From the sequence record MN850576.1: 64,000 nt of DNA; one strand, 5' to 3'. Both the position numbers and the translations under genes were made by a program. The stretch is from Escherichia phage ime. Below are positions 5,942 through 51,044 of the stretch, one piece after another (within the stretch, counting starts at the first letter, position 1; each line of letters opens with the position of its first letter). Under the pieces are notes generated by a model. It was given only the letters and a program-made list of their open reading frames with translations, had not been told where the DNA came from and searched no databases.

Positions 5942-8365
5942 ATGGTAATAAATAATACGACGAACACCTTCATCGTACCACCCACGCTTCACCATTTGGT
6001 GGTGCATGAGTATCCCAACTAAGTCACACAACGATGCACCACCATTTTGTTGGTATGCATTAAGTAAAGAGTGTTTAGATCGGGTCCAGATAGCATGACC
6101 ATCAAAAGAGTAGATAAACTTCTTACCCGTTGCTTCCCAGAATTTCTCCAGATCCTCTTTACGCCCTTTAAGACCAGGGTTGGCATCCCAAAGCGCATCG
6201 ATTACCCTTTGCCCCAACTCTGGGGAGATATCCAGCATGTCTGCAACTTTATCTTTTTGTGCCCCATACATAACCCCGTACGTGATAGGTTTACCGTCGT
6301 TACGAGACACCTCTCTACCTGCTACTTTCGTATATGCCTCAGCATTGTTTTGGTGGGCATCCCCGTTACTTACAACATCGTAATACAGGCCGTTGTCGAA
6401 CTCAAAGGCACCCCAAGCCCCGATAAGCTGCTCTAAGTTGGACCCGTCAATACCGATCTCAAAGTATCCTGGAGGAACACCCCACAGACTGCGCATCTCT
6501 TTACCCATAACCACTTTAGGAGATGGTTTAGGCATGTTTGCACAAATACTGTGTTTCTGTCGGGAAGTGTTTGTTAATCCAGAGCTTTTAGCAGGAAGCT
6601 TATGGTCAATCTTCAAACGTGGGTGATTAAGAAGACCAGTATCAACCTTATCCTCCTTGATTGGATCAAGGACCGATCTGCGGTTTCGCAATGATAACCA
6701 CAAGACGATATCTTTAGCCATCTCTCCGTTCAATTTTTCAAGATTCGGACATAGGTGTCCAAACGTATCTTTCAGTTGCGGAGAAGTAATAAGTGCCCTG
6801 GCTTTTCTGCGTATTTTCCCGAACACTTCCTTTTTAATCCTTTCGGAGTTAGGAAAGCTTCGGAACTTGTGCACTGTTGTCTGAAACTTAGCATCAGTTT
6901 TGTTCCAGAAGTTGATAATTAGGTCACAATACTCTGACTCTAAAAGCTCGTCCATGTATGCATATACTCGTGCATCAACATCTGCATCAGGTAGAGCTTT
7001 CTTCTTGCTGTCCTTAGTTACATCCTTAGTTCTCCACATTGTCGGAAGCCAACCAGCACTGATCAGGTATCGCTTAATGTCGTCCTGGTTGCTGATTTTC
7101 ATAGGTATCTTGCAGTCAGGCATTCGCTTCTGCTGCAGATCACTTATTGCCTGATCCATCAGCTCTTTAGGTAAAGGTTGTGGTGTGGAGGTGCCCTTAA
7201 TATAACCTCTCAAGAAATCAGCCATCTTGTCGGGGTCTTTGCAGCCCATCTCTTCGCACCATTTTATCCCCATCTTGCTGACATCTCCTGTGGAGGTAAA
7301 TGCTCGCTTAGGCGGGGCTTTGAATTCTAAAGCGCTCATGTCTACAGGATAGCCAAGCTTATCTTTTAACCATTTCCAACCATTATTGGAGATTGTCCCA
7401 TCTTGGTTAAACGGCTTTTCAGGGAACTTGGGCCGCTGAGACATTGACAACTCTTTTAAAGGAAGTTGAGGTTCAACACGATCAGCGATCTCTTTCATCC
7501 ACGCATCGCAACGGTCACGTAAAGCAATAGCTCCATCTATGTCGAAGTATACACCCTGACGGGCCTGCAGCTCCATCAGGAAGTGCTGCAGCATGCCTCG
7601 ACGTAATGCGTTCTTCCAGGTGATCTTCTTGAACCCTTTCGGCTTCTCTTTGGCTGGATCGTACATAAAGTTCTGCATGTCAGATTTGCCGTAGAATACA
7701 CCTTTTGATTCCGCTACCAGCTCTTTCCAGAGCAGCTCCTGGATGATAACGTCCTCGAATACACGATCCACATACTTCCACAACGGAAGATCGCGCCAGT
7801 CATCAATTTGAACTTTCTGGTTACCAAGGGCGTAGCCCCATGCCATAAGGCCGTGAGGACCAACAGGCTGCATTTTCTTAGTAACCGGGTTGAATACAGA
7901 GTCCGGACAACCTTTTGGTAAAGGGCGATCAGGCCACAAGATTCTGCTCATCGCCAACGTATCAAACAGGTTAACCTGGTGGTCGTTGATAGTCCCCATG
8001 CATTTAGGATCACGGAACATATCAAAATGAATACCGGATAATCTTTCCATCAGCATAAAGTCATAACTGTAGCAGTTATGGCAGTTCAAAGCTGTTGGTG
8101 ACCAGTCGGAATTGCCTGTAAGCCAACCTTCCAACTCCGAAAAATCTGCTATGCGAACTTCAAAATCTTTATGAAGAGTTTTCTTTGCCAGAATAAAGTT
8201 CTTAGCCTTCTCTATATCCTCTTCGGAGTAGTGTGTGCGGTCATTTAGAGGAAGGAACAGCATAAAACGGTTCTTATTCAGCTCTTTAAACAGGCCGCAG
8301 TGATAATAAAGATCTGGATCTTCCAGCAAACCGGATGACTCAAAGTCGAACGACCACATGCTCAT
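5942..8365 (-). CDS. DNA polymerase family A with 3'-5' exonuclease domain (putative exon 1; ORF track extends to 5936)
   Basis: N-terminal FDFESSGL matches the Exo I motif; GIDGSNLE...FDNG...NGDAH and K...YGVMYGA align with polymerase motifs A and B as I recall them from T7 gp5; ORF stops two codons after the motif C His. Confidence 0.8.
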
Positions 8366-11274: not shown

Positions 11275-11301
11275 AAAAAGCCCCACCCTTTCGGGCAGGG
11301 C
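11275..11301 (-). terminator. rho-independent terminator (minus strand)
   Basis: Same hairpin as at 292-313 (GCCCUGCCC-GAAA-GGGUGGGGC) followed by UUUUU on the minus strand; lies downstream of gene 11308..11790. Confidence 0.6.
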
Positions 11302-19307: not shown

Positions 19308-19317
19308 AATGACTCCA

Positions 19318-19343
19318 AATAGAAAATCCCCGCCGAAGCGGGG
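19318..19343 (-). terminator. rho-independent terminator (minus strand)
   Basis: Minus-strand hairpin CCCCGC-UUCG-GCGGGG followed by AUUUUCU; between gene 19357..19785 and the SleB-like gene. Confidence 0.55.
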
Positions 19344-19356
19344 GAGGTCTTAGAAA

Positions 19357-19785
19357 TTAATCGTAGTGTGCCAAAATCTCTCCATCGTTGCAAGTTCCCT
19401 CTACAAAGTTATGAAGATTCATGCACTCATCTTGATAGAAGAATTTACCGCTTTTCAGCCGTAGGCCAAACAACTCCGCATCTCCACGATGGCAAGCCTC
19501 TACAAGTTCATAGATTTCATACGGCAACTCTCCGTCGTCATGGAAGAATCCAGCCTTATCGTTGACATAAATGAAGAAATAATCACTGCTATCGCAAGCG
19601 TCCAATATTTTAAACCAGACTTCATCTACATCTTTTTCTCGGATATCGATCACGCAAGTGGAGCTGCATTCGTACTCCTTCTCCGGCTCCTCGGTCAATA
19701 CCACCAGGTAGTTTCCCCGCTTACCTACTTTAGCCATACAACCCCCCTTAAGCTTTAGCCAAAATGGCGCTAAACTCTTCACCAA
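19357..19785 (-). CDS. hypothetical protein
   Basis: 142-aa ORF. Confidence 0.5.
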   Translation of the reverse strand: MVKSLAPFWLKLKGGCMAKVGKRGNYLVVLTEEPEKEYECSSTCVIDIREKDVDEVWFKILDACDSSDYFFIYVNDKAGFFHDDGELPYEIYELVEACHRGDAELFGLRLKSGKFFYQDECMNLHNFVEGTCNDGEILAHYD

Positions 19786-20932
19786 ACTCTTTTACAATCT
19801 TCATCAGGTTTGGGTATGCTTTGATCAGCTGAGCAACAATCTTGTCACGCCCTTTACCGATAAGCAAGGCATTTCCTAAGGCATTAGGTTTCATCATCGC
19901 CATAAAGACTGAGAATACAAAATCTCGGTTCTCGTCCTTGAAGTTTTCCCAAAGGAAATCGAGGAAGTTTGCCACGCAGCTGACAAGATCTTCGTCTGAG
20001 ATACTTGCATTTTCCATCATATTGCGAATAGCGATACAACCTTCAGATCCAAGAATCCACAAAATGTCTGGCTGCTTAGGACCTACGTATTCTTTGCAGC
20101 CACCTGCCATAATCCGACCGATTTCCGGTAAATTACGTTTCTTGGTGTGGTAAGTCCAGATCTCTACCGCTGCAGTGTGACCAATAGCACCTTGTAGAAG
20201 AACACGGGCCATAGCGTCAGAAATAATACCGCTGTCAAAATCGTGCAAGATGTCAGATGCAGCAACCCAAGATCGTGGTGTGGCAAAAGATGGACAATTA
20301 ATCTCAGCCATAGCCTCATAATTATCAATAGCTGATGGAACTCTTTTCAGATACCCAATTACAGAGGAGTGAACCCCGTTGAGGAATGCGTAGTCCTCAA
20401 TAAACACCTCTGCATTGCTTGTAACCTCTACAATGATAAAACGGTTAGCCAGAGGGGCTTCGAGCGCCGAAAGAACCGCACCATCTGTAGAACGGTTACC
20501 CGCAGCCACAAAAACAGAACCCTTAGGGAATGCATAGGTGCCGCACTTGTGGTCAAGCATAATTTGCATTGCAACCTTTTGCAGGTAGTTATCTGCATGA
20601 GTGAGCTCATCCAGAAAGATAATTCCGCTCCAGTCAGGATCCGCAGGCCAAAATTCTGGAATTGCAAACACTGTACGTGTAGTTCCATCCGCTTCTACAG
20701 GGATAGGTAGCCCAGATAAGTCGGCAGGATCTTTATCTGACAGTCGCACGTCAACAAGGTTGTCATCTCGCTCACCGAACATATTATCAGCGATCTGCTT
20801 CATCACCTGGCTTTTACCCACACCCATTGGTCCCAAAATTAGGACAGATCGGCTATGACGTTGGGCAAACTGAATAATAGCTGGCAACTCACGGACAGTG
20901 ATTTGACCACTTTCGAATACGTTTCTTGACAT
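19748..20932 (-). CDS. AAA+ ATPase (MoxR/AAA_5-like)
   Basis: 394 aa; Walker A GPMGVGKSQ, Walker B IIFLDELTHA, sensor-like AAGNRS. Confidence 0.7.
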   Translation of the reverse strand: MSRNVFESGQITVRELPAIIQFAQRHSRSVLILGPMGVGKSQVMKQIADNMFGERDDNLVDVRLSDKDPADLSGLPIPVEADGTTRTVFAIPEFWPADPDWSGIIFLDELTHADNYLQKVAMQIMLDHKCGTYAFPKGSVFVAAGNRSTDGAVLSALEAPLANRFIIVEVTSNAEVFIEDYAFLNGVHSSVIGYLKRVPSAIDNYEAMAEINCPSFATPRSWVAASDILHDFDSGIISDAMARVLLQGAIGHTAAVEIWTYHTKKRNLPEIGRIMAGGCKEYVGPKQPDILWILGSEGCIAIRNMMENASISDEDLVSCVANFLDFLWENFKDENRDFVFSVFMAMMKPNALGNALLIGKGRDKIVAQLIKAYPNLMKIVKEFGEEFSAILAKA

Positions 20933-21628: not shown

Positions 21629-21889
21629 TCAGTCCACCTCTTCTTCTCGTTGTAGTTCAAGATACCCGTAGGTCTGGACATCTTGAAGGGTGTGGAACTC
21701 CCCCCCCTCTGCCGCTAAGGCACGAACAACTTGGCACAAAACCTTATGAGGAACTTCATCCAAACCTAGATTCAGTGCAGGAAACACCTTATCTAAGTCA
21801 ACAAAATAAACGAACTGTAGCTCACCAGCTTCAAAAGGTGTATCTTCAATAAACATCTTCTCGGCATTAGTCAAGATCTGCACTTTCAT
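21629..21889 (-). CDS. hypothetical protein
   Basis: 86-aa ORF. Confidence 0.45.
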   Translation of the reverse strand: MKVQILTNAEKMFIEDTPFEAGELQFVYFVDLDKVFPALNLGLDEVPHKVLCQVVRALAAEGGEFHTLQDVQTYGYLELQREEEVD

Positions 21890-22245
21890 TATTCTACCTC
21901 CTCTTCTTTTTCTTCGGCATTAGTTTCATGGCTACCCCACTCGGGAGTTTCCACCTCGATAGTAAACTCACGCACTACACGGTAATTGCCCATGAAGCGC
22001 TCTACTTCGTCAAGGCTTATGGAGAGGCCATTGGCAACCAGGTCTGCAGCACCCTCTTCTACCAGGTAGTCCAGATTGGCTTCCAGAGCCTCAGGTTCAA
22101 ACCCTGTCAATGCAATCAGATAACCTTCCCCTTCATCAGGGAGGACAATACAGCCCAATTGATTTTCTTTAAAAAGGCAGTGACCATCATTATTGATTGG
22201 GTGTTCATTGCAGTAAATAGCTGCACGATAAGTAACTTTAGACAT
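21889..22245 (-). CDS. hypothetical protein (N-terminus MSKVTYRA shared with internal segment of 23510..24553)
   Basis: ATG at 22245 has AAGGAG 9 nt upstream; the ORF track instead starts at TTG 22266. Start region lies in a 29-bp inverted repeat. Confidence 0.5.
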   Translation of the reverse strand: MSKVTYRAAIYCNEHPINNDGHCLFKENQLGCIVLPDEGEGYLIALTGFEPEALEANLDYLVEEGAADLVANGLSISLDEVERFMGNYRVVREFTIEVETPEWGSHETNAEEKEEEVE

Positions 22246-22250
22246 CGGTA
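22222..22250. repeat. 29-bp perfect inverted repeat copy A (partner at 24084..24112)
   Basis: Sequence tgcacgataagtaactttagacatcggta is the exact reverse complement of 24084-24112. Confidence 0.85.
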
Positions 22251-22258
22251 AGGTCTCC

Positions 22259-22537
22259 TTAGGCAATTGTCGTTTTACATTCTTGAAATTTTAACACAAG
22301 ACGGTGATTGTGTCTAGTGTCTAAAAAGATTTTTTCAACCATCAGGCACACGGTATAACCGTCAATCTTGTTGACAACAAAATCTCCAGGATGAGGGAGG
22401 ATGTCTCCCGGATTGGGGAAACATAGTCCACTCAGAAAGGCATCGTCAGTGGTGGACTTAATAGATTTCCACACACTGTCTGCCTGAACATGTTCACCGA
22501 CGTAATATACATTACCACATGCCTTCATCATAGTCAA
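22259..22537 (-). CDS. hypothetical protein
   Basis: 92-aa ORF. Confidence 0.45.
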   Translation of the reverse strand: MTMMKACGNVYYVGEHVQADSVWKSIKSTTDDAFLSGLCFPNPGDILPHPGDFVVNKIDGYTVCLMVEKIFLDTRHNHRLVLKFQECKTTIA

Positions 22538-23433
22538 ACCCTCGCATAAATTAAACTTGTATCAGTATACTTCTTTAATGGGTAAATATCCTGTCCATAG
22601 ATGCAATCATTAAACACCTCATCTACCCAAAGGCTACACTTATATCCCATCATTTCTAAAACACCCATCTCTTCTTCGGTAAACTTATCACCGCTCTTGC
22701 AAGATGTCAATACCTCATTCTGAACTCTTGCTACCTCGAAGCGGTTATTGGCAATATCGCTATTGGCGATCAAATACTCACCTAGAGGGTGTGCGGCATT
22801 AAAGATGCACAGTGGACGGCTGACGTAATAGTCTCCAGGTGTATAAAAATTGTTGAGGTCTTTCACTAGAACATTCTTATCAGTCACTTCATTTATAACA
22901 TCATGCATATCGCACATCTTTATATGTTTGAGGATTCCATCCCCCATCACAAAATAAAAACTTGCTGAGACACTTTCGGCATAGATCTTACTAGATCCGT
23001 TGTAGTTGTATTTTACTCGGATGCTAACGGGGGTTTTTCCTGTCGCGTTAGCCATCATCCAAAGAAATGGCAGCTCATACTTCTCCTCTGAGGAAACAAA
23101 AGGTGAGGTAGCCAGAGATCGAAAACCTCCAGAGAAGTTGAAAGTTACAGAACCGCTCCGGCGGTATGATACCGCGTATTCTACTTTTATATCGACATAC
23201 CCATTGGAATAGGTGTGTCCTTCATTATCTAAATATGTCCACTTATCAGACCCAGATACCAATCTACGCTCAATAACCTTCATCACTATAGGAATTAATG
23301 GGTTGGTACAAACCGCTTTTGAAGTAGCTTTATCATCTAAAGCCTCGTAAATTGCAGAAAGGATGTCCCCAGCTGAAAGATTGGTTGTTATGTCCTGTTT
23401 CCACCGCGTACTAAAACTGTTAAGATTTGCCAT
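22534..23433 (-). CDS. hypothetical protein (first gene of leftward operon)
   Basis: 299-aa ORF; AGGAG RBS upstream of ATG 23433; sits downstream of the leftward sigma70-like promoter. Confidence 0.55.
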   Translation of the reverse strand: MANLNSFSTRWKQDITTNLSAGDILSAIYEALDDKATSKAVCTNPLIPIVMKVIERRLVSGSDKWTYLDNEGHTYSNGYVDIKVEYAVSYRRSGSVTFNFSGGFRSLATSPFVSSEEKYELPFLWMMANATGKTPVSIRVKYNYNGSSKIYAESVSASFYFVMGDGILKHIKMCDMHDVINEVTDKNVLVKDLNNFYTPGDYYVSRPLCIFNAAHPLGEYLIANSDIANNRFEVARVQNEVLTSCKSGDKFTEEEMGVLEMMGYKCSLWVDEVFNDCIYGQDIYPLKKYTDTSLIYARV

Positions 23434-23473
23434 AAGTAAGTGCTCCTATGTTAGTTTTCTTTCGAATGGGTGC

Positions 23474-23502
23474 ACTATATTGTGGAGTTAGAGTAAAGTC
23501 AA
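23474..23502 (-). promoter_or_regulatory. sigma70-like promoter, leftward (-35 TTGACT, 17-nt spacer, -10 TATAGT)
   Basis: On the minus strand: TTGACT-N17-TATAGT, about 40 nt upstream of the gene start at 23433. Confidence 0.55.
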
Positions 23503-23509
23503 CACGTTT

Positions 23510-24553
23510 TTGATGTTGACATCTGTTGAGACAATTGATACGATTTCTTCACTTACAGAGCACGAGAGACGACTCATGAATCTTGAAAAATATTATACAC
23601 CAGAAGAGTTAGAGCGCTTGCTCAAAAAATATAGACGCAAACAGAATAACGCACGGAAACGAGATATAGAGTTCGACCTGTCATGGGAAGAATACCTCCT
23701 ATTTGGTAAAAAACTTTTAGGAGATGGAGTATGCGACTATACCCTTATACCTTTTGACATGCACACAGATGAAAACGGGCTGGGGAATCCTTTCTACCCA
23801 TCTCTGGAGCGGATAGATGATGAAGGTCCTTATGCGGTTGATAACTGTTGTGTGGTGGGATTGAGATGCAACTCTCTAAAGGACTGTCTGGTAGATAAAA
23901 AGACTGCAGTCTTGATTAAAGACGAAACTGATCGAAAAATTGTCCAGCAGATGATGCTCCACCTGAGCGAAGAGCGTATGGAGAAATTGAAAGGTGATTA
24001 TACTTTTGAAGATTTCATCTTGCAATATGGAACGGAAGAGGATAAACTAGCACTCTTTGACGAAGAAGAGGAGGAAGATATGCTACCGATGTCTAAAGTT
24101 ACTTATCGTGCACCCAAGAAGCACATTTCCGACATTGTAAACGAGCCTATCACAGAAGAGATTGAAGAAATGACGCAACAGGTGCATGAAGAGGAAAAAG
24201 AGACTCAGGAGGTCGAAGAGGAGCTTACAGAAGAGGTTCCTGCACTACCTGATGATGTTGAGATTGCCAAAGCTTACACTTTCTATTGTCAAACGTTCTA
24301 CGATGTAGGTATGAAAGTTGATCTGTCGTTCAGCCAATTTAAGAGTTCGTATATTCGCAAATGCTGTGCTTTAACTGGTGAACGTCTTGGAGCTGGACTT
24401 AAACCCCTGTTGGTGACCGACTGGAATAAAGGTTTCACTAAAGGAAACTTTATGGTAGTATCTCCAATTATGGAGAAAGCTATGACAGATCTTATGAAGA
24501 CCACCCGCATGACAATGACCGAGTTGGCAGGTATTTTCAAACACGTTAAATAA
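23510..24553 (+). CDS. hypothetical protein with two degenerate HNH (His-Me finger)-like domains
   Basis: 347-aa ORF; two halves share the pattern [FV]DLS...C..TG...[RW]...G[YF]...N..VV...K; the catalytic His appears replaced in both. Start may be ATG 23576 if the promoter at 23516-23544 is used. Confidence 0.5.
   Translation: MMLTSVETIDTISSLTEHERRLMNLEKYYTPEELERLLKKYRRKQNNARKRDIEFDLSWEEYLLFGKKLLGDGVCDYTLIPFDMHTDENGLGNPFYPSLERIDDEGPYAVDNCCVVGLRCNSLKDCLVDKKTAVLIKDETDRKIVQQMMLHLSEERMEKLKGDYTFEDFILQYGTEEDKLALFDEEEEEDMLPMSKVTYRAPKKHISDIVNEPITEEIEEMTQQVHEEEKETQEVEEELTEEVPALPDDVEIAKAYTFYCQTFYDVGMKVDLSFSQFKSSYIRKCCALTGERLGAGLKPLLVTDWNKGFTKGNFMVVSPIMEKAMTDLMKTTRMTMTELAGIFKHVK
23516..23544 (+). promoter_or_regulatory. 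sigma70-like promoter, rightward (-35 TTGACA, 17-nt spacer, -10 TACGAT)
   Basis: TTGACA at 23516-23521, 17-nt spacer, TACGAT at 23539-23544; divergent from the leftward promoter. Confidence 0.5.
24084..24112. repeat. 29-bp perfect inverted repeat copy B (partner at 22222..22250)
   Basis: taccgatgtctaaagttacttatcgtgca; encodes LPMSKVTYRA in the interdomain linker of ORF 23510..24553 and follows a GAGGAGGA and ATG. Confidence 0.85.
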
Positions 24554-24565
24554 TGACAGGGGCCA

Positions 24566-26047
24566 ATGGCCCCTTCTGGAGTTTTAATGGATAGTAGAAG
24601 TTCAGAAATCATTGCCTCGCAGAAAGATGATGCCCTGAGAATGTTGCAGGCTGCACGTATGTATCTCCTTGAAAAGCTGCCGTTTTATGGCACACTACTG
24701 TCAGGGTTGCAGTTCGTAGAAAACCACACATGGTGCTCCACCATGGCAACCGACCATAAACGCATCTATTACAGTCCTGAGTTCATTATGGGATTGGCTG
24801 ATGAACGCAAGGCTATTCTTAAGGCTTCTCTAACTGACGAGCAGTTTGAGATGGCTGAAGTTTTCTATTCCCCAAAATCTGTGAAAGAGGTGGCCTTCCT
24901 TCTGTCACATGAGGTGGGGCATATTATCTGTGATCACCTAGTCCGTGGTAAAAGCTTTGAGCCGGAACTGTTCAATATTGCTTGTGATCACGTTATCAAC
25001 ACAGGCCTTGTGGTTGACTTTAGCAAACCTCCTTGTGTTTTCTTCCCGAAGGGGAAAAGCACTACGTTCATGAAAGGTAAGCCTTTTGGCTTCTTAGCCA
25101 GCTGCTACTGCGACATGAAGTTTCATGGATGGATTGCTGAGAACGTTTATGCAGTTCTTGATAAGCAAAGAGATCAGAATAACGGTAAAAGTAAGAACGG
25201 TAAAGGTGAGAACTCTCAAAGTGATAAGCGACAAACCGATGATCACATGAGTGGGAACGGTGGCACCAGTGATAATCTTGGAAAGGCTATGAGGTATGAT
25301 CAGCCACAACCTGTAATCAGCCAATCTGATAAAGATCAGGCCATGCAGGACTCTGGTGATATGCTGGAGGCAGCAATGCAAGCGTCCGGAGGCCGTTGCC
25401 CTGAGGCGGTGCGTGAGTTTGTCAAGAACAGAGGTAAGCCTGTAATCAACTATATAGACATCATTAAGCAACGTATGTTGTCTAAAAGAAAGGCCGAACT
25501 GACCTACAGAAAACCTGGTCGCCGATCTGGGTCTTTGACCAGCACAATGCGAAAAGTTGGGGCTATAAACAAGAACCAGCACGTTATTGTTCCTGGTCGT
25601 AATCCGGAAAACACTATAGATATTGTGGTGGCTTTAGACGTTTCTGGCTCGATCTCTCAAAGAACTTTAAAGAAAATGTTCAATGAAATCACCGGATTGT
25701 GCAATCTGTATAAAGAGTTTAAGGTTACAATGTTCTGTTGGTCAACTGAGGTTGGAGAGGTTAAAGTATACACTCGCGGCAACATAGACGAGATGGTCAA
25801 CTATGAGGTCCACTCAACATGGGGCACAACAGCTGCTTGCGTGTTCGAGTATCTGGATGCCAACATACCTAATGCAAAAGATGTCATCGTCCTGACCGAC
25901 CTATACTTTGAGCATAACTTTGAACAAAAGGTTGTTGACAACAAGTGGAAAAAGTACGATACTCTATGGGTCCTCACTGAGGGGTATAATAAAAATTATA
26001 TCCCGAGCTTTGGGAAAACTGTGGAATTAATCGAGTACGCTAAGTAA
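24566..26047 (+). CDS. putative metallopeptidase plus VWA domain protein
   Basis: 493 aa; HExxH motif (LSHEVGHIICDH) in the N-terminal half; MIDAS-like VVALDVSGSIS in the C-terminal half. Alternative start ATG 24587 has a GGAG RBS. Confidence 0.65.
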   Translation: MAPSGVLMDSRSSEIIASQKDDALRMLQAARMYLLEKLPFYGTLLSGLQFVENHTWCSTMATDHKRIYYSPEFIMGLADERKAILKASLTDEQFEMAEVFYSPKSVKEVAFLLSHEVGHIICDHLVRGKSFEPELFNIACDHVINTGLVVDFSKPPCVFFPKGKSTTFMKGKPFGFLASCYCDMKFHGWIAENVYAVLDKQRDQNNGKSKNGKGENSQSDKRQTDDHMSGNGGTSDNLGKAMRYDQPQPVISQSDKDQAMQDSGDMLEAAMQASGGRCPEAVREFVKNRGKPVINYIDIIKQRMLSKRKAELTYRKPGRRSGSLTSTMRKVGAINKNQHVIVPGRNPENTIDIVVALDVSGSISQRTLKKMFNEITGLCNLYKEFKVTMFCWSTEVGEVKVYTRGNIDEMVNYEVHSTWGTTAACVFEYLDANIPNAKDVIVLTDLYFEHNFEQKVVDNKWKKYDTLWVLTEGYNKNYIPSFGKTVELIEYAK

Positions 26048-38307: not shown

Positions 38308-39354
38308 TTAAGCATAAGATATAGTGATCCATTGACCGTTTACAAGTTTTTGGATAGCACCTGTCCAGTAATCACCTTGATAAGGGTGTTTATAAGCGTA
38401 GTTACCAGAGCACATCACATGTCCAGGGTAGACTCTTGACTCTCTGTAGGTGGTTTTGAAACGGTTCGCTATCCTTACATCGTCAACCCCTCTACTGGGC
38501 ATAGGGACAGTAAGGTTACCACTACCGTCTGCGCTGTTACCGTTTACCCTGCGGACCACGTTTCTTCCACCAACGGTTGCATATTGGCCTCTAACGGTTT
38601 CATCGTTACAATCAACTCTTCCACCTATTTGAGCGCTTCCGCAGGATTGTTGTCCGTTAACAGTGGCTCTTGGTATCGTGACCGCATTGGCATTTGCAGA
38701 GGAACTTTTTGCATCGTTGCATTCAAGATTTCCTTGGATAGCCAGTCTTGCACGGTTGGCAGTTATAGCATTGAGCTTCATAGCCGAAAACACAGGCTGC
38801 CCACCAGAAGGTTGAAATCTCCAACGGAACCCGTCTATTTGGTGAGAAGGATCATCAAGGTCTGTGCCGTCAGCACCACCGATGTTGTCCATAATCCAGA
38901 AGTCCATCGTCGTCTTGTCTGGAGTTATGGTGGTATATATTGCCGCATTGTCTGTTGACGCAGATGCAAACTCGATTCTTTGAAGGCCTAAAGTTTGAGT
39001 CTGAGTCATTATGTCTCCAGACTTGTCAACATACAGATCGTCCATTTCTTCAGGCGAGTATACATTGAGAACTTGACGTGCAGCAGCTTTGTCTGGAACG
39101 TCTGCTAGATTATTAGTGACCCTTAAGAATCTATTATCCCATCCTGGGACAACATCTTCTGTTAAATGCTTTAACCACGCAGAAAGCATGTGAAGTTCAA
39201 AGTTAACAACTTCACATGCCACTCTTTGTGTCATATCCCAACCTTTCAATCTCTCTTCTTTTTTTGGTTGAGACTTATTCAACTCTCCCGTATTTTCAAG
39301 CACAACATCCTGATTGGCCCAAATATCAAGAGGGATAACTGGTTTAGTCATCAC
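38308..39354 (-). CDS. tail fibre protein, paralog B
   Basis: 348 aa; paralogous to 40366..41406, with identical C-terminal motif QKLVNGQWIT and shared PLDIWA / GDxMTG / LGLQRI motifs. Confidence 0.65.
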   Translation of the reverse strand: MMTKPVIPLDIWANQDVVLENTGELNKSQPKKEERLKGWDMTQRVACEVVNFELHMLSAWLKHLTEDVVPGWDNRFLRVTNNLADVPDKAAARQVLNVYSPEEMDDLYVDKSGDIMTQTQTLGLQRIEFASASTDNAAIYTTITPDKTTMDFWIMDNIGGADGTDLDDPSHQIDGFRWRFQPSGGQPVFSAMKLNAITANRARLAIQGNLECNDAKSSSANANAVTIPRATVNGQQSCGSAQIGGRVDCNDETVRGQYATVGGRNVVRRVNGNSADGSGNLTVPMPSRGVDDVRIANRFKTTYRESRVYPGHVMCSGNYAYKHPYQGDYWTGAIQKLVNGQWITISYA

Positions 39355-40365: not shown

Positions 40366-41406
40366 CTATGCATAATTAACAGTGATCCATTGACCATTTA
40401 CAAGTTTTTGTAAAGGTCCTGCCCAGTAGGTTGAACCACGCATCTCTTTTTTGTCACCGAAATGCCAGCCTGTGACAACGTATCCGTTGCGGATTGGAGA
40501 TTCAGAAACGCCGTCCACAAGTCTTGCACCGATTCTGATGTCTTGCACACCTGTCTGCGGGATAGTGATCGTTACATCACCGTTACCGTTAGCCGTCACT
40601 CCATTCACGGAGCGCACCACATTTCTGTTACCGACAACACAGTGCTGGCTTCTTACAACCATACTGTCACAACTTGCACCACCATTGACATATACTGACC
40701 CAGCCGTCAACTGACTGGCCACATTACAGTTGGTGAATGTTGCTGTATTGCTGATAGTAAGGTTATTGCACCTCATGTTATCGACAACTTCAACATTGCC
40801 TACCACTTTCAACAGCGCACGATTAGCCGTGATCGCGTTAAGGTACATCAAAGTGAACTCTGGATTAATATCCGGCTGAGTTGGCTGGAATCTCCAACGA
40901 AACGCATCTACTGTAGATGTACCACCATCATCAAACGACCCGGTATTATCACTTAACCCAAAGTCGAGGGTTGTCTTATCTGGGCCAATAGTTGTCTCTA
41001 TCCAAGCCTTATCTGTCTCGGCAGCTTTAAAGTTGATACGTTGCAACCCCAAGGGGCCTGTCATTGTATCACCTGTAACTTTTACATACCTGGCGTCTGC
41101 CTCTTCCTTAGTGATAATCCCAAGGTTTCTACGGGCAACAGGAATGTTCAAAAGATCGCTCAAGTTATTATCACGTACCAGATAACGGCCTTCTTGAGCT
41201 GGGATCTGCTCGTCAGCAATGTATTTTGCCCAAGTCCCGAGCATATTGAAAATATAGTTAAGTTCTTCACATGAGGGCTTTTGACCAAGATCCCAACCTT
41301 TTCTCCACAAATCATCAATCGGGCGTAGCCTGTTCTGTCTGTGGGTGTTAGGCAGAACCTGATCCTCCTCTGCCCAAATCTCTAATGGAAAACTAGGTTT
41401 TGACAT
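40366..41406 (-). CDS. tail fibre protein, paralog A
   Basis: 346 aa; paralog of 38308..39354. Confidence 0.65.
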   Translation of the reverse strand: MSKPSFPLEIWAEEDQVLPNTHRQNRLRPIDDLWRKGWDLGQKPSCEELNYIFNMLGTWAKYIADEQIPAQEGRYLVRDNNLSDLLNIPVARRNLGIITKEEADARYVKVTGDTMTGPLGLQRINFKAAETDKAWIETTIGPDKTTLDFGLSDNTGSFDDGGTSTVDAFRWRFQPTQPDINPEFTLMYLNAITANRALLKVVGNVEVVDNMRCNNLTISNTATFTNCNVASQLTAGSVYVNGGASCDSMVVRSQHCVVGNRNVVRSVNGVTANGNGDVTITIPQTGVQDIRIGARLVDGVSESPIRNGYVVTGWHFGDKKEMRGSTYWAGPLQKLVNGQWITVNYA

Positions 41407-45679: not shown

Positions 45680-45750
45680 GTCACTCCTCCGGTATGAAAA
45701 TCTCTACAAGGTATTTTACCAAATTTTGTAACAATAGTCAATCTGAGCAT

Positions 45751-45775
45751 AAAAATAAACCCCGCCGAAGCGGGG
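45751..45775 (-). terminator. rho-independent terminator (minus strand)
   Basis: Minus-strand CCCCGC-UUCG-GCGGGG followed by UUUAUUUUU, just downstream of the J-like gene stop (45785). Confidence 0.55.
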
Positions 45776-45784
45776 CTTTAAAGG

Positions 45785-48700
45785 TTAGTCGTGAGACTCG
45801 TTCCAAGGTCCCTGGAAGCTTGAGTTAGAACGACTAACGATCACAGTGGGACAGGAGATTGTGACACCTGTCACGCTAGACGTTGACCACGGTGTGTAAA
45901 TCTCGACAATAATGTCTATAGTTTGTTCACCTAGACCAGTTATCCCTACCGCACACATGCCGTTGTTGTCGTTTCCGTACTTCTTACCTGCAAGGATTTG
46001 ATGTCCGGCTATCCAAACGTTAAGCTGGGAGCCAGACAATGTCCCGTTTAGTTTAAAGAAGAATGTTACGTTCTTACCTTGTCCTGAAACGTTGTCCACA
46101 TATCTCCACCTCCAACGGCAAACCCTCTGCTGCGAGTTGTATACTGGAGGACAGTCACCGTAGGTTCTGTGTGCAACTATTGCACCTTCGAACTGGTTAG
46201 CACGGATAACAGAAGCTTCTACACGCCCACGGAAGGTACCTCCAGTTGCATCTATGGTACCCCTAAAGTTACCATTATTGGCATAAACATCTCCACGGAA
46301 GGTACCACTGGTGGCGTTAACTGCCCCTGTGAAGTTACCAGAACTGGCGTTGATGTTGCCTTTCACCCACACATCCATAAATTGGGCGTGCCCGTTCTTG
46401 TTAATGTACCAACCGTATTTATGGTACCCGTTGCCATCGTAGTTGTTTGACGAAATTTCTTGTGCGATCTTGGCAGAGGAGATCGTGCCATTCTCTATAA
46501 AAGCGTCTTTCAAGAACGCTTGGTTGTTCTTGATTGCGAAAGCAAGGGTTGCTGTTCCATTTCCAGGGTTGTATACCGCAAAATTGTTTGCACTAACCAT
46601 GAAGTAGGATTGAACTTGTCCTCCAGACCCCTCCATGCCTAGCTGGATACCTGCAACATACTTATTCCCTGCAGAGTCTACCTGAATCTTAGCTCCCCAC
46701 TGAGCATTTATTTTACCCTCAAGTGTTGTTACAGCTTTAGAGGTATTAGATACTGTAGCCCTGAGCTCATCAATATTACCCATTTCGTCAACAATTTCTT
46801 GTTTTGCAGAGGTAAGTTCTTGACGGATCGCTGTGGCTGTATTATTAACAAGATCAACTGTTGTACTATTAGTTTCTTGAATAGATGCTTGCAGATTGGC
46901 AACCTCTTTCTGCACATCATCTTCCAGCTTGGTGATCTTCCCTGTAGCTGCCACCAGATCCTGCTTAATAGCTTCCGTTGTCTTATTTAGCAGATCTGTT
47001 GTTGCCTTGTTGGTTTCTTGAATAGAGGAGTTAAGTTTACTCTCAGTGTTCTTCAACTCTTCCCGCAGAGTACCTTGAGTTGCAGTTATTTGCTCACTCA
47101 ATGCTTGAGTTTTACGATTAACAAGATCAACGGTTGATCTATTTGTTGTCTCGATTAGTGACCCAAGCCTACCAGACTCTGCTGCAAGTTTATCGTCAAA
47201 TGATTGCTGAGCTGCTACCAGCTTACTGTTAAGGGCAGAAATTTCTCCATTAACCCCTGTAAATTTTTCTGTCGTCTCTCTGACAACACCCTCTATTGTA
47301 TCCCCAAGCTCTTCAAAAATGCTAGTAACACGGTCATTGACTGCACCAACATTTTTATCCATTTCCTTGACTGCATTATCAAGATTGGCGGTAAGCTCTT
47401 TATAAGTCTCTGTCTTTTTGAACTCAGCATCAATCTGTGGCATAAGATCTTCTATGGATGTGTAACAGTGGGCTGCACACTCCACAAAAGCAGATGAACC
47501 AAAAGCATTTGTTGTCCTGATATACCAGTAATAAATCTTATCGTTCTGCAGACCTTCAGATGTCCAAGTTGAACCAACACCCATACGAGTGGCTTTTGAA
47601 GTAACGGTTGCATCACTGGTATCTGGCAATCTTGTCATCCCAGATGTCCAAAAGTCGTACTGGGTGCTTACACTAGCCAAGTCTCTGCTGTGCGGGATCA
47701 GGGTAATAGCAAAGTATCCCTGTTTAACTTCTACAGAAACCGGAGCCTCAGGTGCCTGAATGTTAAACTCACAGTATGCTTCTGGAGATACACCACCTTT
47801 ATAAGATGTTGCAACAACAGTGGCTGTGTAGGAACCTTTAGTCAGACCTTCAACACGGACAAACTGCTCAACTGTCTGCGCTGTCCAGACAATCTCTCCG
47901 TTTTTCCTGACCTGCACAATGTTTTGAGCATAAGTCCCAACGTTGTCCCAAGCCAAAACACCGTGAGTTACTTCTCCAGCTTGGAGAACGGAATATCTGA
48001 AGTTTTGCGGTTGAGCTACACCAGATGGAGATATCGGAATATCTACATCGCCAGAATCCGGAAGTTGCCCTGTGGCATCATTCCACTCTTTAGCATCTTG
48101 ACGAAGTTTTACCTTGACACCCCCCTTTTTGGTAAACTCCCATTCAAGAACTCTCATTTCTTGGCCCACTATACCAATACTTGGGAGGTCCATTGTAACG
48201 TAACGACCAGGTTTAAATTTGAAACCTCGCATATTGCAGGTGACTTCAATAATCCTGCCAGCTCTGGCACGTCTTAGGAAGATTGCAGAAACACGCTGAG
48301 CTTGATAAGGACTGGTAACAAAGCGATAGTCTATATCGATTATCTTTCTTTCTCCATCCTTCTCTATCCACTCTGGGACAAACACTGATGGAAAATCTGT
48401 TTCAGAATACCCTTTGGTAGGACTGGTGAATCTGCCAGTTATTGTGTTGGATCTTTTGTCAAATGAGGCTTCCGGATAGATCTTGACCTCACCACAGACA
48501 CAATCCTCACTCAGTGTCATTGTTGCCGGGCCATAGTATGCACCAACCAGCAAACCATACTTACCAGCTACATAGCTGAGATCTGCACCACAAGCTTTCA
48601 GCATTTCTGCCATAATGCTTGCTGGGGCCTCATCCATGTCAAACTCACCGTTAATGGTGTAACGTCGCTCACTGGTTCCGTCAGCGTTTTTTACCGCCTC

Positions 48701-50952: not shown

Positions 50953-51016
50953 TGTGCCTCCAGGTTAAACAATCATGATAGTTATTTTACCAGATTTTGA
51001 GTTAATACGCAATACA

Positions 51017-51044
51017 AACAAAAAGCCCCCGCCGAAGCGAGGGC
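51017..51044 (-). terminator. rho-independent terminator (minus strand)
   Basis: Minus-strand GCCCUCGC-UUCG-GCGGGGGC followed by UUUUUGUUUG, downstream of the 110-aa gene. Confidence 0.5.

Follow-up and report, generated by a model that had tools for sequence, protein, structure and literature searches.

A perfect inverted repeat in two genes of a Murica-type Vequintavirus as the probable footprint of a templated multi-nucleotide mutation

Organisation of the locus and geometry of the repeat

The window, that is the whole 64-kb stretch of DNA that was analysed, belongs to a Murica-type Vequintavirus (rV5-like coliphage). At the locus under study two operons are read away from each other, and a consensus scan located a divergent sigma70-like pair of promoters between them (23474..23544), as the initial annotation had proposed; promoters are also annotated in V5 and Gotham. 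The predicted leftward promoter (23502-23474, minus strand, TTGACT-17-TATAGT) would serve the operon gp010-gp009-gp008 and the genes beyond, and the rightward one (23516-23544, plus strand, TTGACA-17-TACGAT) the operon beginning with gp011 and gp012. The gp008-like gene (21889..22245, minus strand, 118 aa), which is annotated in Murica, V5 and others, matches phrog_12908, a family with no assigned function, at 2.2e-80, ends in an acidic C-terminal tail and gave no match in a Pfam search; its Shine-Dalgarno, AAGGAG, is found at 22260-22255. The open reading frames of gp009 (90 aa) and gp010 (299 aa) occupy 22259..23433 on the same strand and match phrog_12847 and phrog_12338, neither with an assigned function. 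No Pfam match was obtained for either of them, and gp010 is annotated as 'putative alpha 1-3 fucosyltransferase'. Both are context and lie outside the repeat itself.

The rightward gp011-like gene (23576..24553, plus strand, 325 aa, or open reading frame 23510-24553 if the upstream TTG start is used) is annotated 'Srd-like anti-sigma factor' and matches phrog_3118 at 6.5e-113. Its product consists of an N-terminal domain, an acidic linker and a conserved C-terminal domain, and has no match among the Pfam models. Residues 13-130 match the 'decoy of host sigma70' family phrog_4592 (3.3e-13), residues 13-219 the 'Srd anti-sigma factor' family phrog_1400 (2.3e-10) and residues about 15-111 endonuclease PHROGs. 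Hence the Srd and endonuclease-like matches fall in the N-terminal and not in the C-terminal domain. The HNH-like character initially given to the latter did not hold, as no Pfam match was found even at E = 10 and the label is carried only by the protein's own PHROG. Judged by similarity, gp011 would belong to the family of T4 Srd, the decoy of host sigma70/sigma38, and the rV5 paper describes gp11 as a probable Srd homologue (PMC3606486). The likeness lies in the N-terminal matches to the Srd and decoy PHROGs. Unlike T4 Srd, gp011 has in addition the acidic linker and another conserved domain, and the comparison concerns solely the gene in which the right arm sits. An internal duplication relating the N- and C-terminal domains was considered and rejected (BLASTP not significant, E = 1.5).

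In the alignment of homologues the variable acidic linker (24031..24250, plus strand) is the least conserved and most indel-rich part of gp011, which suggests that it tolerates indels and is swapped by recombination. The AlphaFold model, of mean pLDDT 44.8 and with residues about 170-225 at pLDDT 23-38 and devoid of secondary structure, is too poor for a fold search and lends weak support to a disordered linker only.

The repeat, TACCGATGTCTAAAGTTACTTATCGTGCA, occurs exactly twice in the window, at 22250-22222 on the minus strand and at 24084-24112 on the plus strand, so the perfect 29-bp inverted repeat first reported is real. Its arms are 100% identical and are separated by a spacer of 1,833 nt. 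When inverted repeats of 18 nt or longer are compared across the 64 kb, it is the sole one with 100% complementarity, the rest reaching at most 90%. No further copy with up to 3 mismatches was found in the window, and no match, even at up to 3 mismatches, in 100 dinucleotide shuffles of it, in agreement with the earlier view that a perfect 29-mer is improbable by chance. The placement of the arms was likewise correct: the left arm (22222..22250, minus strand) is the start of the gene at 21889-22245, made of the 5-nt leader TACCG and gp008 codons 1-8 (MSKVTYRA), and the right arm (24084..24112, plus strand) lies inside the open reading frame 23510-24553, where it forms linker codons 170-179 of gp011 (LPMSKVTYRA).

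Distribution of the arms among relatives

The two arms differ strongly in their distribution. The start of gp008 carries the left arm with 0-3 substitutions in about 115 Vequintavirus records, and given that the outgroup gp008 homologue (L015) begins with MSKVCRAM, the left-arm sequence is native to gp008. The right arm is confined to 27 of the 117 phage records, from 25 distinct phages, and to one metagenome contig. The other 90 records, together with outgroup proteins, have a longer linker allele (MSPMQDFKNFMADRAA), which in the 90 records reads ...ACCGATG-CAGGATTTTAAAAATTTCATGGCTG-ATCGTGCAGCC in place of the right arm. Only two related loci were found in IMG/VR and both are of the ancestral type. 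Furthermore, the outgroup gp011 proteins P0015 and P0016, at 62-65% identity, show M-T-P-A-Q-E-L-R-E-F-M/I-..-K-R at this place, as in the long allele. The outgroups thus set the polarity, and by this comparison the perfect repeat is derived, with gp008 as donor and the linker as recipient. The initial annotation had held that absence of the repeat from all relatives would speak against its significance; this is partly what was found, the left arm being near-universal and the right arm absent from 90 of the 117 records.

Nine carriers were also examined for arm identity, and in four of them the arms have diverged by 1-2 mismatches, with a single differing base in each of nomine and PMBT16, two in Alma, where the differences include a V to A replacement in gp008, and two in ECP32. 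The copy itself varies, since LPMSEVTYRA is found among homologues and TACCTATG in ECP32. Arm identity is therefore not maintained. In addition, the linker of HeinrichReichert is 78-89% identical to the window within flanks of 96-99%, and the linkers of ECP32 and inoa are 97-100% identical while their other segments reach about 85-97%, so that the derived linker of these two phages sits in otherwise divergent backgrounds. These mosaic patterns show that the arms are inherited separately, the linker allele recombining into backgrounds without the left arm.

Ancestral linker and templated patch

Alignment with the ancestral linker, ...ATG TCA CC(G/A) ATG CAG GAT TTT AAA AA(T/C) TTC ATG GCT (G/A)AT CGT G(C/G)A GCC..., shows that it already matched the gp008 start at two motifs, ACCGATG and ATCGTGCAGC (V5) / ATCGTG(CAGC), and that these bracket exactly the segment swapped for gp008 sequence. 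Between the motifs, 25 nt have given way to the 13 nt that separate them in gp008. The linker is thus 12 nt shorter but still in frame, and in the protein QDFKNFMAD has become SKVTY. The bases shared by the arms thereby rose from 7 nt plus 6-10 nt in the ancestral state to 29 of 29, and the new bases, TCTAAAGTTACTT and the T at 24084, are exactly those of the gp008 start. A chance match of 13 novel bases with the donor is expected at about 4^-13. In light of these results, the inverted repeat is probably the trace left in one sublineage of rV5-like phages by a single templated multi-nucleotide mutation, which arose in the ancestor of the Murica-type linker allele, and nothing indicates that it acts as a switch or control element. 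Of the three readings offered initially the 'recombination joint' comes closest, as a short copied tract is bounded by pre-existing microhomologies, but the product is an intragenic patch and not a joint of two modules.

We propose that the ancestral linker shared its two short stretches by chance with the gp008 start, which lies on the other strand at a distance of 1.8 kb. Indeed, the window has 378 quasi-inverted pairs of 7+8 nt within 3 kb, compared to 263-355 in shuffles; as shuffling leaves such microhomology pairs about equally frequent, the ancestral substrate is not special. A nascent strand during replication, or a resected end during break repair, would have paired by its 3' terminus in the linker at the first microhomology, copied about 13-21 nt of the gp008 start (TCTAAAGTTACTT...) and rejoined its own template through the second microhomology, so that a trivial quasi-inverted repeat would have become a perfect 29-mer. 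The donor would be the plus strand at 22222-22250. For a fork moving rightward this would be the lagging-strand template, trailing by about one Okazaki-fragment length, a position that makes a cross-fork (intermolecular) template switch geometrically plausible. The patch would have landed in a disordered, indel-tolerant linker with the frame intact, would have been tolerated and would later have spread among Vequintaviruses via ordinary homologous recombination.

Homogenisation of repeat arms by template switching was reportedly first proposed by Ripley in 1982 for rIIB of phage T4. Inverted-repeat template-switch mutation is documented in E. coli with thyA and lacZ reporters (PMC7202029), and template-switch mutations are described in yeast coding genes, where the spacers surveyed are 70 nt or less and shorter ones are favoured (PMC8604942). 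The patch resembles such quasipalindrome events in that the change is clustered within coding sequence, the new bases are those predicted by the other arm of a prior imperfect inverted repeat, which is made perfect, and several adjacent amino acids are replaced. It differs from them by a 1,833-nt spacer and by involving two genes, where the spacers of such events run from a few nt to about 70 nt, and by also removing 12 nt. With a spacer so far beyond the classical ones the simple hairpin version is unlikely. A nascent-strand hairpin is implausible at such spacing, which leaves only a cross-fork or a recombinational route. Although it operates as a template switch would, the event falls outside the classical quasipalindrome class, whose spacers are typically under 100 nt.

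Short-tract ectopic gene conversion and microhomology-primed repair synthesis (synthesis-dependent strand annealing, SDSA, with template switching, or events of the MMBIR type) offer a second likeness, since there too synthesis starts from a 3' end paired over a few bases with an ectopic donor and goes back after a short copied tract. Untemplated substitutions clustered beside the tract are reported for error-prone repair synthesis (bioRxiv 10.1101/2023.08.09.552703). Here gp008 does not account for four substitutions that lie next to the tract but outside the 29-mer: TGG has become GAG upstream and the T at 24083 a C, and downstream GCC and AAC have become CCC and AAG. Extra mutations or an unsampled parent are hence needed, and the exact parent is not among the sampled genomes. 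The event differs from this class in that no sign of a break is seen here and in that the flanking homology, of 7 and 6-10 nt, is far shorter than that used by canonical homologous recombination. A short-tract ectopic conversion of the SDSA type fits equally well as a cross-fork template switch; we infer that one of the two routes produced the patch and that it has been selectively neutral, while its spread into divergent backgrounds could instead reflect positive selection.

Alternative readings and significance

An adaptive transplant would mean that the copied patch was kept and spread because the peptide LPMSKVTYRA, or the nucleotides themselves, give gp011 a new interaction or regulation. 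In ECP32 and inoa the derived linker is about 100% identical in backgrounds otherwise 91-95% identical, as in a recombination sweep, and the N-terminus of gp008 retains MSKV..RA even in a distant homologue, so that a role of the peptide in gp008 is conceivable. On the other hand, carriers make up only 27 of 117 records, the patch sits in the least conserved and most indel-rich stretch of gp011, and the copy already varies in the two forms given above. Moreover, mosaicism is general in the region, so the spread needs no selection. We consider adaptive retention and spread unlikely. A wider proposal, in which the 29-bp in-frame homology made by the patch supports rare inversion of the promoter segment in Murica-type phages with chimeric proteins, or in which the gp008 motif or start gives gp011 a selected property that accounts for the presence of the patch in divergent backgrounds, is decidedly unlikely.

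The repeat could also have duplicated an initiation region, giving an internal start for the C-terminal domain of gp011 alone or a common target of a trans-acting translational regulator. An SD-like run, GAGGAGGA (24068-24075), does lie upstream of the right arm as initially described, with GAGGAGG at 24068-24074, 5 nt before an ATG; this upstream in-frame ATG is at 24080-24082 and not at 24079. A second ATG (24089) lies inside the repeat, followed by the same 24 bases as in gp008, and distant homologues also show Met after the acidic run. Nevertheless, the Shine-Dalgarno of gp008 was left out of the copied tract, the SD-like GGAGG and ATG 24080 are already present in FV3-type genomes lacking the patch, the former as a by-product of Glu codons, and the SD-like run stands 14 nt from ATG 24089, where 5-9 nt would be expected. 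Four carriers have arm differences upstream of the ATG, and RNA folding around the arms was unremarkable (z = -1.39 and -0.64), with no shared RNA element. Shared translational control or internal initiation, as suggested at first, is hence very improbable. Antisense pairing of the two mRNAs was discarded, since both carry the same sense sequence and are not complementary.

In the case of an invertible segment, the arms would serve as substrate for homologous recombination that flips the 1.8-kb segment containing the promoters. The 29 identical inverted bases read LPMSKVTYRA in both genes, and this shared frame implies that inversion would interrupt transcription of neither operon and would produce two in-frame fusions, namely chimeras of the gp011 N-domain with the gp008 body and of the gp008 start with the gp011 C-domain. 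An in-frame match is also expected from purifying selection on any surviving patch. The predicted isomer junction ATAGC-arm-GCATAT had 0 matches in viral, metagenome and genome contigs, a weak null as the positive control revealed only one carrier in these collections. The informative null is therefore the colinearity of GenBank genomes: 115 of 119 records, the 27 two-arm carriers included, are colinear in one piece, and the remaining four are fragments. Furthermore, Pfam and PHROG searches revealed no recombinase, invertase or integrase gene among the six proteins gp007 to gp012, 90 of 117 records lack the right arm, and four carriers show decay of the arms. Chimeric proteins were sought among gp011 homologues, where the short P0017, P0018 and P0021 proved to be frameshifted or truncated forms of the ancestral type and not fusions. 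The Mu G, P1 C and e14 P segments are inverted by the Gin, Cin and Pin invertases at inverted repeats of about 26-34 bp. As in those systems the repeats here are placed in coding sequence around a segment of at least 1 kb and permit alternative C-terminal fusions, but there is no invertase gene, no enhancer and no second orientation in any genome, and most relatives lack one arm, so that the likeness is only geometric. The initial suggestion of an invertible segment is accordingly very improbable.

An origin of the identity by chance, by convergence or as an assembly artefact is already refuted, since short microhomologies of this kind are common but nothing else favours it, the identity extends to synonymous sites and leader bases, the shuffles gave no match even at 3 mismatches and the same allele recurs in all the carriers listed above, the metagenome contig included.

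As a functional element the repeat is of no importance, and we regard it as a mutational scar. Its value is that of a clean natural case, with polarity resolved, of a templated multi-nucleotide mutation acting across about 1.8 kb and two phage genes, in which five residues were rewritten and four deleted in one step. In phage comparative genomics such patches can be mistaken for regulatory repeats, recombination sites or bursts of positive selection; they can be recognised by their restricted distribution, by flanking microhomology in the ancestral sequence and by arms that are not maintained.

The 29-base inverted repeat and its locus

The 29-mer TACCGATGTCTAAAGTTACTTATCGTGCA is present in exactly two copies in the window, at 22250-22222 on the minus strand and at 24084-24112 on the plus strand, with a spacer of 1,833 nt separating the arms. 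No further site was found in the window at up to 3 mismatches and no match appeared in dinucleotide-preserving shuffles (0/100), so that the perfect 29-bp inverted repeat of the initial annotation is borne out with both positions exact. In a whole-window repeat search this pair is the sole 100% complementary inverted repeat, all other inverted pairs of 18-29 nt being 72-90% complementary. The left arm comprises 5 leader bases and the first eight codons (MSKVTYRA) of gp008, a 118-aa gene at 21889-22245 whose Shine-Dalgarno AAGGAG (22260-22255) lies outside the repeat. The right arm, in frame with gp011 (23576-24553), encodes LPMSKVTYRA at codons 170-179. The divergent promoters said to be flanked by the arms were also found, as consensus-like sites at 23502-23474 (-) and 23516-23544 (+).

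The phage belongs to the genus Vequintavirus (rV5-like myoviruses), with 99.8% identity over this region to Escherichia phages Murica and pangalan. Matches were found in 119 records of the phage collection, and 115 of these records span at least 80% of the 3.5-kb query as a single colinear piece. In rV5 numbering the left gene is ORF 8 (phrog_12908), the right gene is ORF 11, which is annotated "Srd-like anti-sigma factor", and ORF 9 and ORF 10 lie between the arms. Through its N-terminal domain, ORF 11 matches the PHROG families "decoy of host sigma70" (3.3e-13) and "Srd anti-sigma factor" (2.3e-10) as well as endonuclease-like families, and the "C-terminal HNH-like domain" proposed earlier has a PHROG label as its sole support. 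Inverted repeats are not mentioned in the rV5 paper (PMC3606486).

Sixteen GenBank records named 'Campylobacter phage' (host C. jejuni; e.g. MG065635.1, MG065655.1) are 93-99.5% identical to the E. coli rV5-like phages here and are likely mislabelled or contaminating coliphages. Around the locus, an ATPase gene at 19748-20932 (-), so annotated in Murica and MoxR/AAA-like by eye, and a gene at 24566-26047 (+) for a DUF2201 metallopeptidase plus VWA-like protein resemble a MoxR-VWA pair separated by the divergent promoter region. The RefSeq label 'HNH endonuclease' on the VWA protein and on gp011 is without Pfam support. After the VWA gene, Murica carries three consecutive genes of equal length (264 bp; gp013-gp015, 7061-7850 of locus L001), likely tandem paralogues, with the window equivalent just downstream of 26047. 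Elsewhere, near-identical GC-rich hairpins recur at 19316-19344, 45748-45776 and 51015-51043, and also at 287-313 and 11275-11301 (CCCCGCCGAAGCGGGG; GCCCCACCCTTTCGGGCAGGGC); these families are probably shared intrinsic-terminator cassettes. Three diverged 59-nt copies about 135 nt apart (46827-47158) and a 62-nt pair (38309-38370 / 40367-40428, 82% identity, 2,058 nt apart) suggest internal repeats or paralogous genes in a presumed structural region.

Linker alleles and direction of copying

The gp011 linker of the ancestral type (V5) reads GAT ATG TCA CCG ATG CAG GAT TTT AAA AAT TTC ATG GCT GAT CGT GCA GCC AAC, and the derived linker of the window reads GAT ATG CTA CCG ATG TCT AAA GTT ACT TAT CGT GCA CCC AAG. 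The gp008 start, aligned to them, reads CCT TA CCG ATG TCT AAA GTT ACT TAT CGT GCA GCT ATT. The motifs ACCGATG and ATCGTG(CAGC) were common to the long (ancestral) allele and the gp008 start before the patch, and the 25 nt between them gave way to the 13 nt that gp008 carries in the same interval. A net -12 nt resulted, which kept the reading frame and turned QDFKNFMAD into SKVTY. The gp011 linker took up a short copied tract, at least 13 nt long with identity over 29 nt, from the gp008 start, and a microhomology bounds this tract on either side. Next to it are four substitutions without a gp008 template (TGG to GAG, T to C at 24083, GCC to CCC, AAC to AAG), which may stem from error-prone synthesis, from a parent outside the sample or from drift after the event.

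The polarity was read from outgroups. Two gp011 homologues of 62-65% identity (P0015, P0016) show M-T-P-A-Q-E-L-R-E-F-M/I-x-K-R, the long-allele pattern, and at the relative locus L015, where gp011 is only 55% identical, the gp008 homologue starts MSKVCRAM while the gp011 linker holds nothing resembling MSKV..RA. MSKV..RA is therefore native to gp008, so that copying ran from gp008 as donor to the gp011 linker as recipient, and the perfect repeat is the derived state. We consider the repeat probably the footprint of a templated patch mutation.

Inverted-orientation site pairs sharing a 7-mer and an 8-mer within 30 nt, at most 3 kb apart, number 378 in the window vs 263-355 in ten shuffles; the ancestral quasi-repeat is one among hundreds of chance microhomologies and was not a special substrate. 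The linker is acidic and indel-rich across homologues, and the patch sits where the protein is least constrained. Predicted linker pLDDT is 23-38 with no secondary structure, the model as a whole being poor (mean pLDDT 44.8).

Distribution of the arms and alternative readings

With a 30-nt query, the left-arm sequence was found at the gp008 start in essentially all Vequintavirus records and at a second site in only ~28 of them. A 76-nt query centred on the right arm retrieved its allele from 27 records (26 at 100% identity, ECP32 at 97.4%), and a 74-nt query from the rV5 linker version retrieved the long allele from 90. One human-gut metagenome contig carries both arms with unchanged spacing. 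Among nine carriers of the derived allele, the arms are perfect (0 differences) in the window, Murica, Gotham, inoa and metagenome contig L013, differ by 1 nt in nomine and PMBT16 (TGCCG vs TACCG) and by 2 nt in ECP32 and in Alma, where one change is gp008 Val4 to Ala. A protein variant LPMSEVTYRA was found as well.

The derived linker of ECP32 and inoa is 97-100% identical to that of the window, most other segments being about 85-97%; for HeinrichReichert, identity drops to 78-89% in the linker from 96% in the gp011 N-domain and about 99% over gp009, gp010, the intergenic region and the C-domain. Given these segment-wise identities, the linker allele moves independently of the left arm. Compared with the relative loci L007, L008 and L010, the linker at 24031-24250 behaves as a recombination mosaic, the HeinrichReichert pattern being reversed in ECP32 and inoa. 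An adaptive transplant, in which the copied motif was retained for a new property, takes the main share of the residual probability and is unlikely.

Internal initiation from the repeat region ranks after it and is quite improbable. An SD-like GGAGG does stand five bases before an ATG at 24080 (put at 24079 in the initial annotation); it consists of Glu codons and, with this ATG, is present in unpatched FV3-type genomes (GGGAGGAAGATATG). Since GGAGG predates the patch, ATG 24089 inside the repeat is 14 nt away from it and the gp008 Shine-Dalgarno is absent from the copied tract, the patch created no start site. In gp011 homologues down to 55% identity, a Met recurs immediately behind the acidic stretch of the linker (EEEDM / EEEPM / KEEDM / EEETNQM; alignment columns ~195-205); it could hint at conserved initiation of the C-terminal domain from within the gene, or be chance. 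A promoter-like TTGACG-16-TATGCT at 24057-24084 (+) abuts the right arm; the T that ends its -10-like hexamer is also the base at which the patch begins, next to the untemplated C at 24083, and the ancestral allele reads TATGTC. It is probably a chance match, since the region holds 8 promoter-like sites vs 7.0 in shuffles.

Rare inversion of the segment between the arms, also raised initially, is the least probable of these three readings: no phage-collection record has the segment inverted, no recombinase is encoded near the arms among gp007 to gp012, and a search of three collections for the predicted isomer junction found none, a weak null since just one carrier is present there. RNA folds around both arms are unremarkable, and both mRNAs carry the same sense sequence, so that mutual pairing is impossible.

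Possible routes to the templated patch

For the templated patch mutation, a 3' end in ...ACCGATG would pair with CATCGGT on the plus strand at 22243-22249, copy leftwards to about 22222 and then re-anneal at ATCGTG. With a fork moving rightwards, the donor strand would be the template of the lagging strand and would trail the fork by roughly one Okazaki fragment, a geometry compatible with an intermolecular (cross-fork) template switch. Strand switching between molecules is described for leading-strand quasipalindrome correction (Rosche et al. 1997, as listed in PMC7202029) and for the homogenisation of inverted-repeat arms in yeast genes (PMC8604942). Spacers in those cases do not exceed 70 nt, with a preference for shorter ones (PMC8604942), and the 1.8-kb spacer is far longer. 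Short-tract repair synthesis primed by microhomology is therefore just as good a route.

The resemblance to the invertible segments G of Mu and C of P1 does not go beyond geometry, and every testable defining feature of these is absent here. The patch event shares three defining features with the quasipalindrome, or inverted-repeat-homogenising, template switch but lacks the short spacer, and it was therefore filed as a long-range templated patch mutation, not a classical quasipalindrome event. The patch adds one more example of an already known mutational process and is not a new kind of element.
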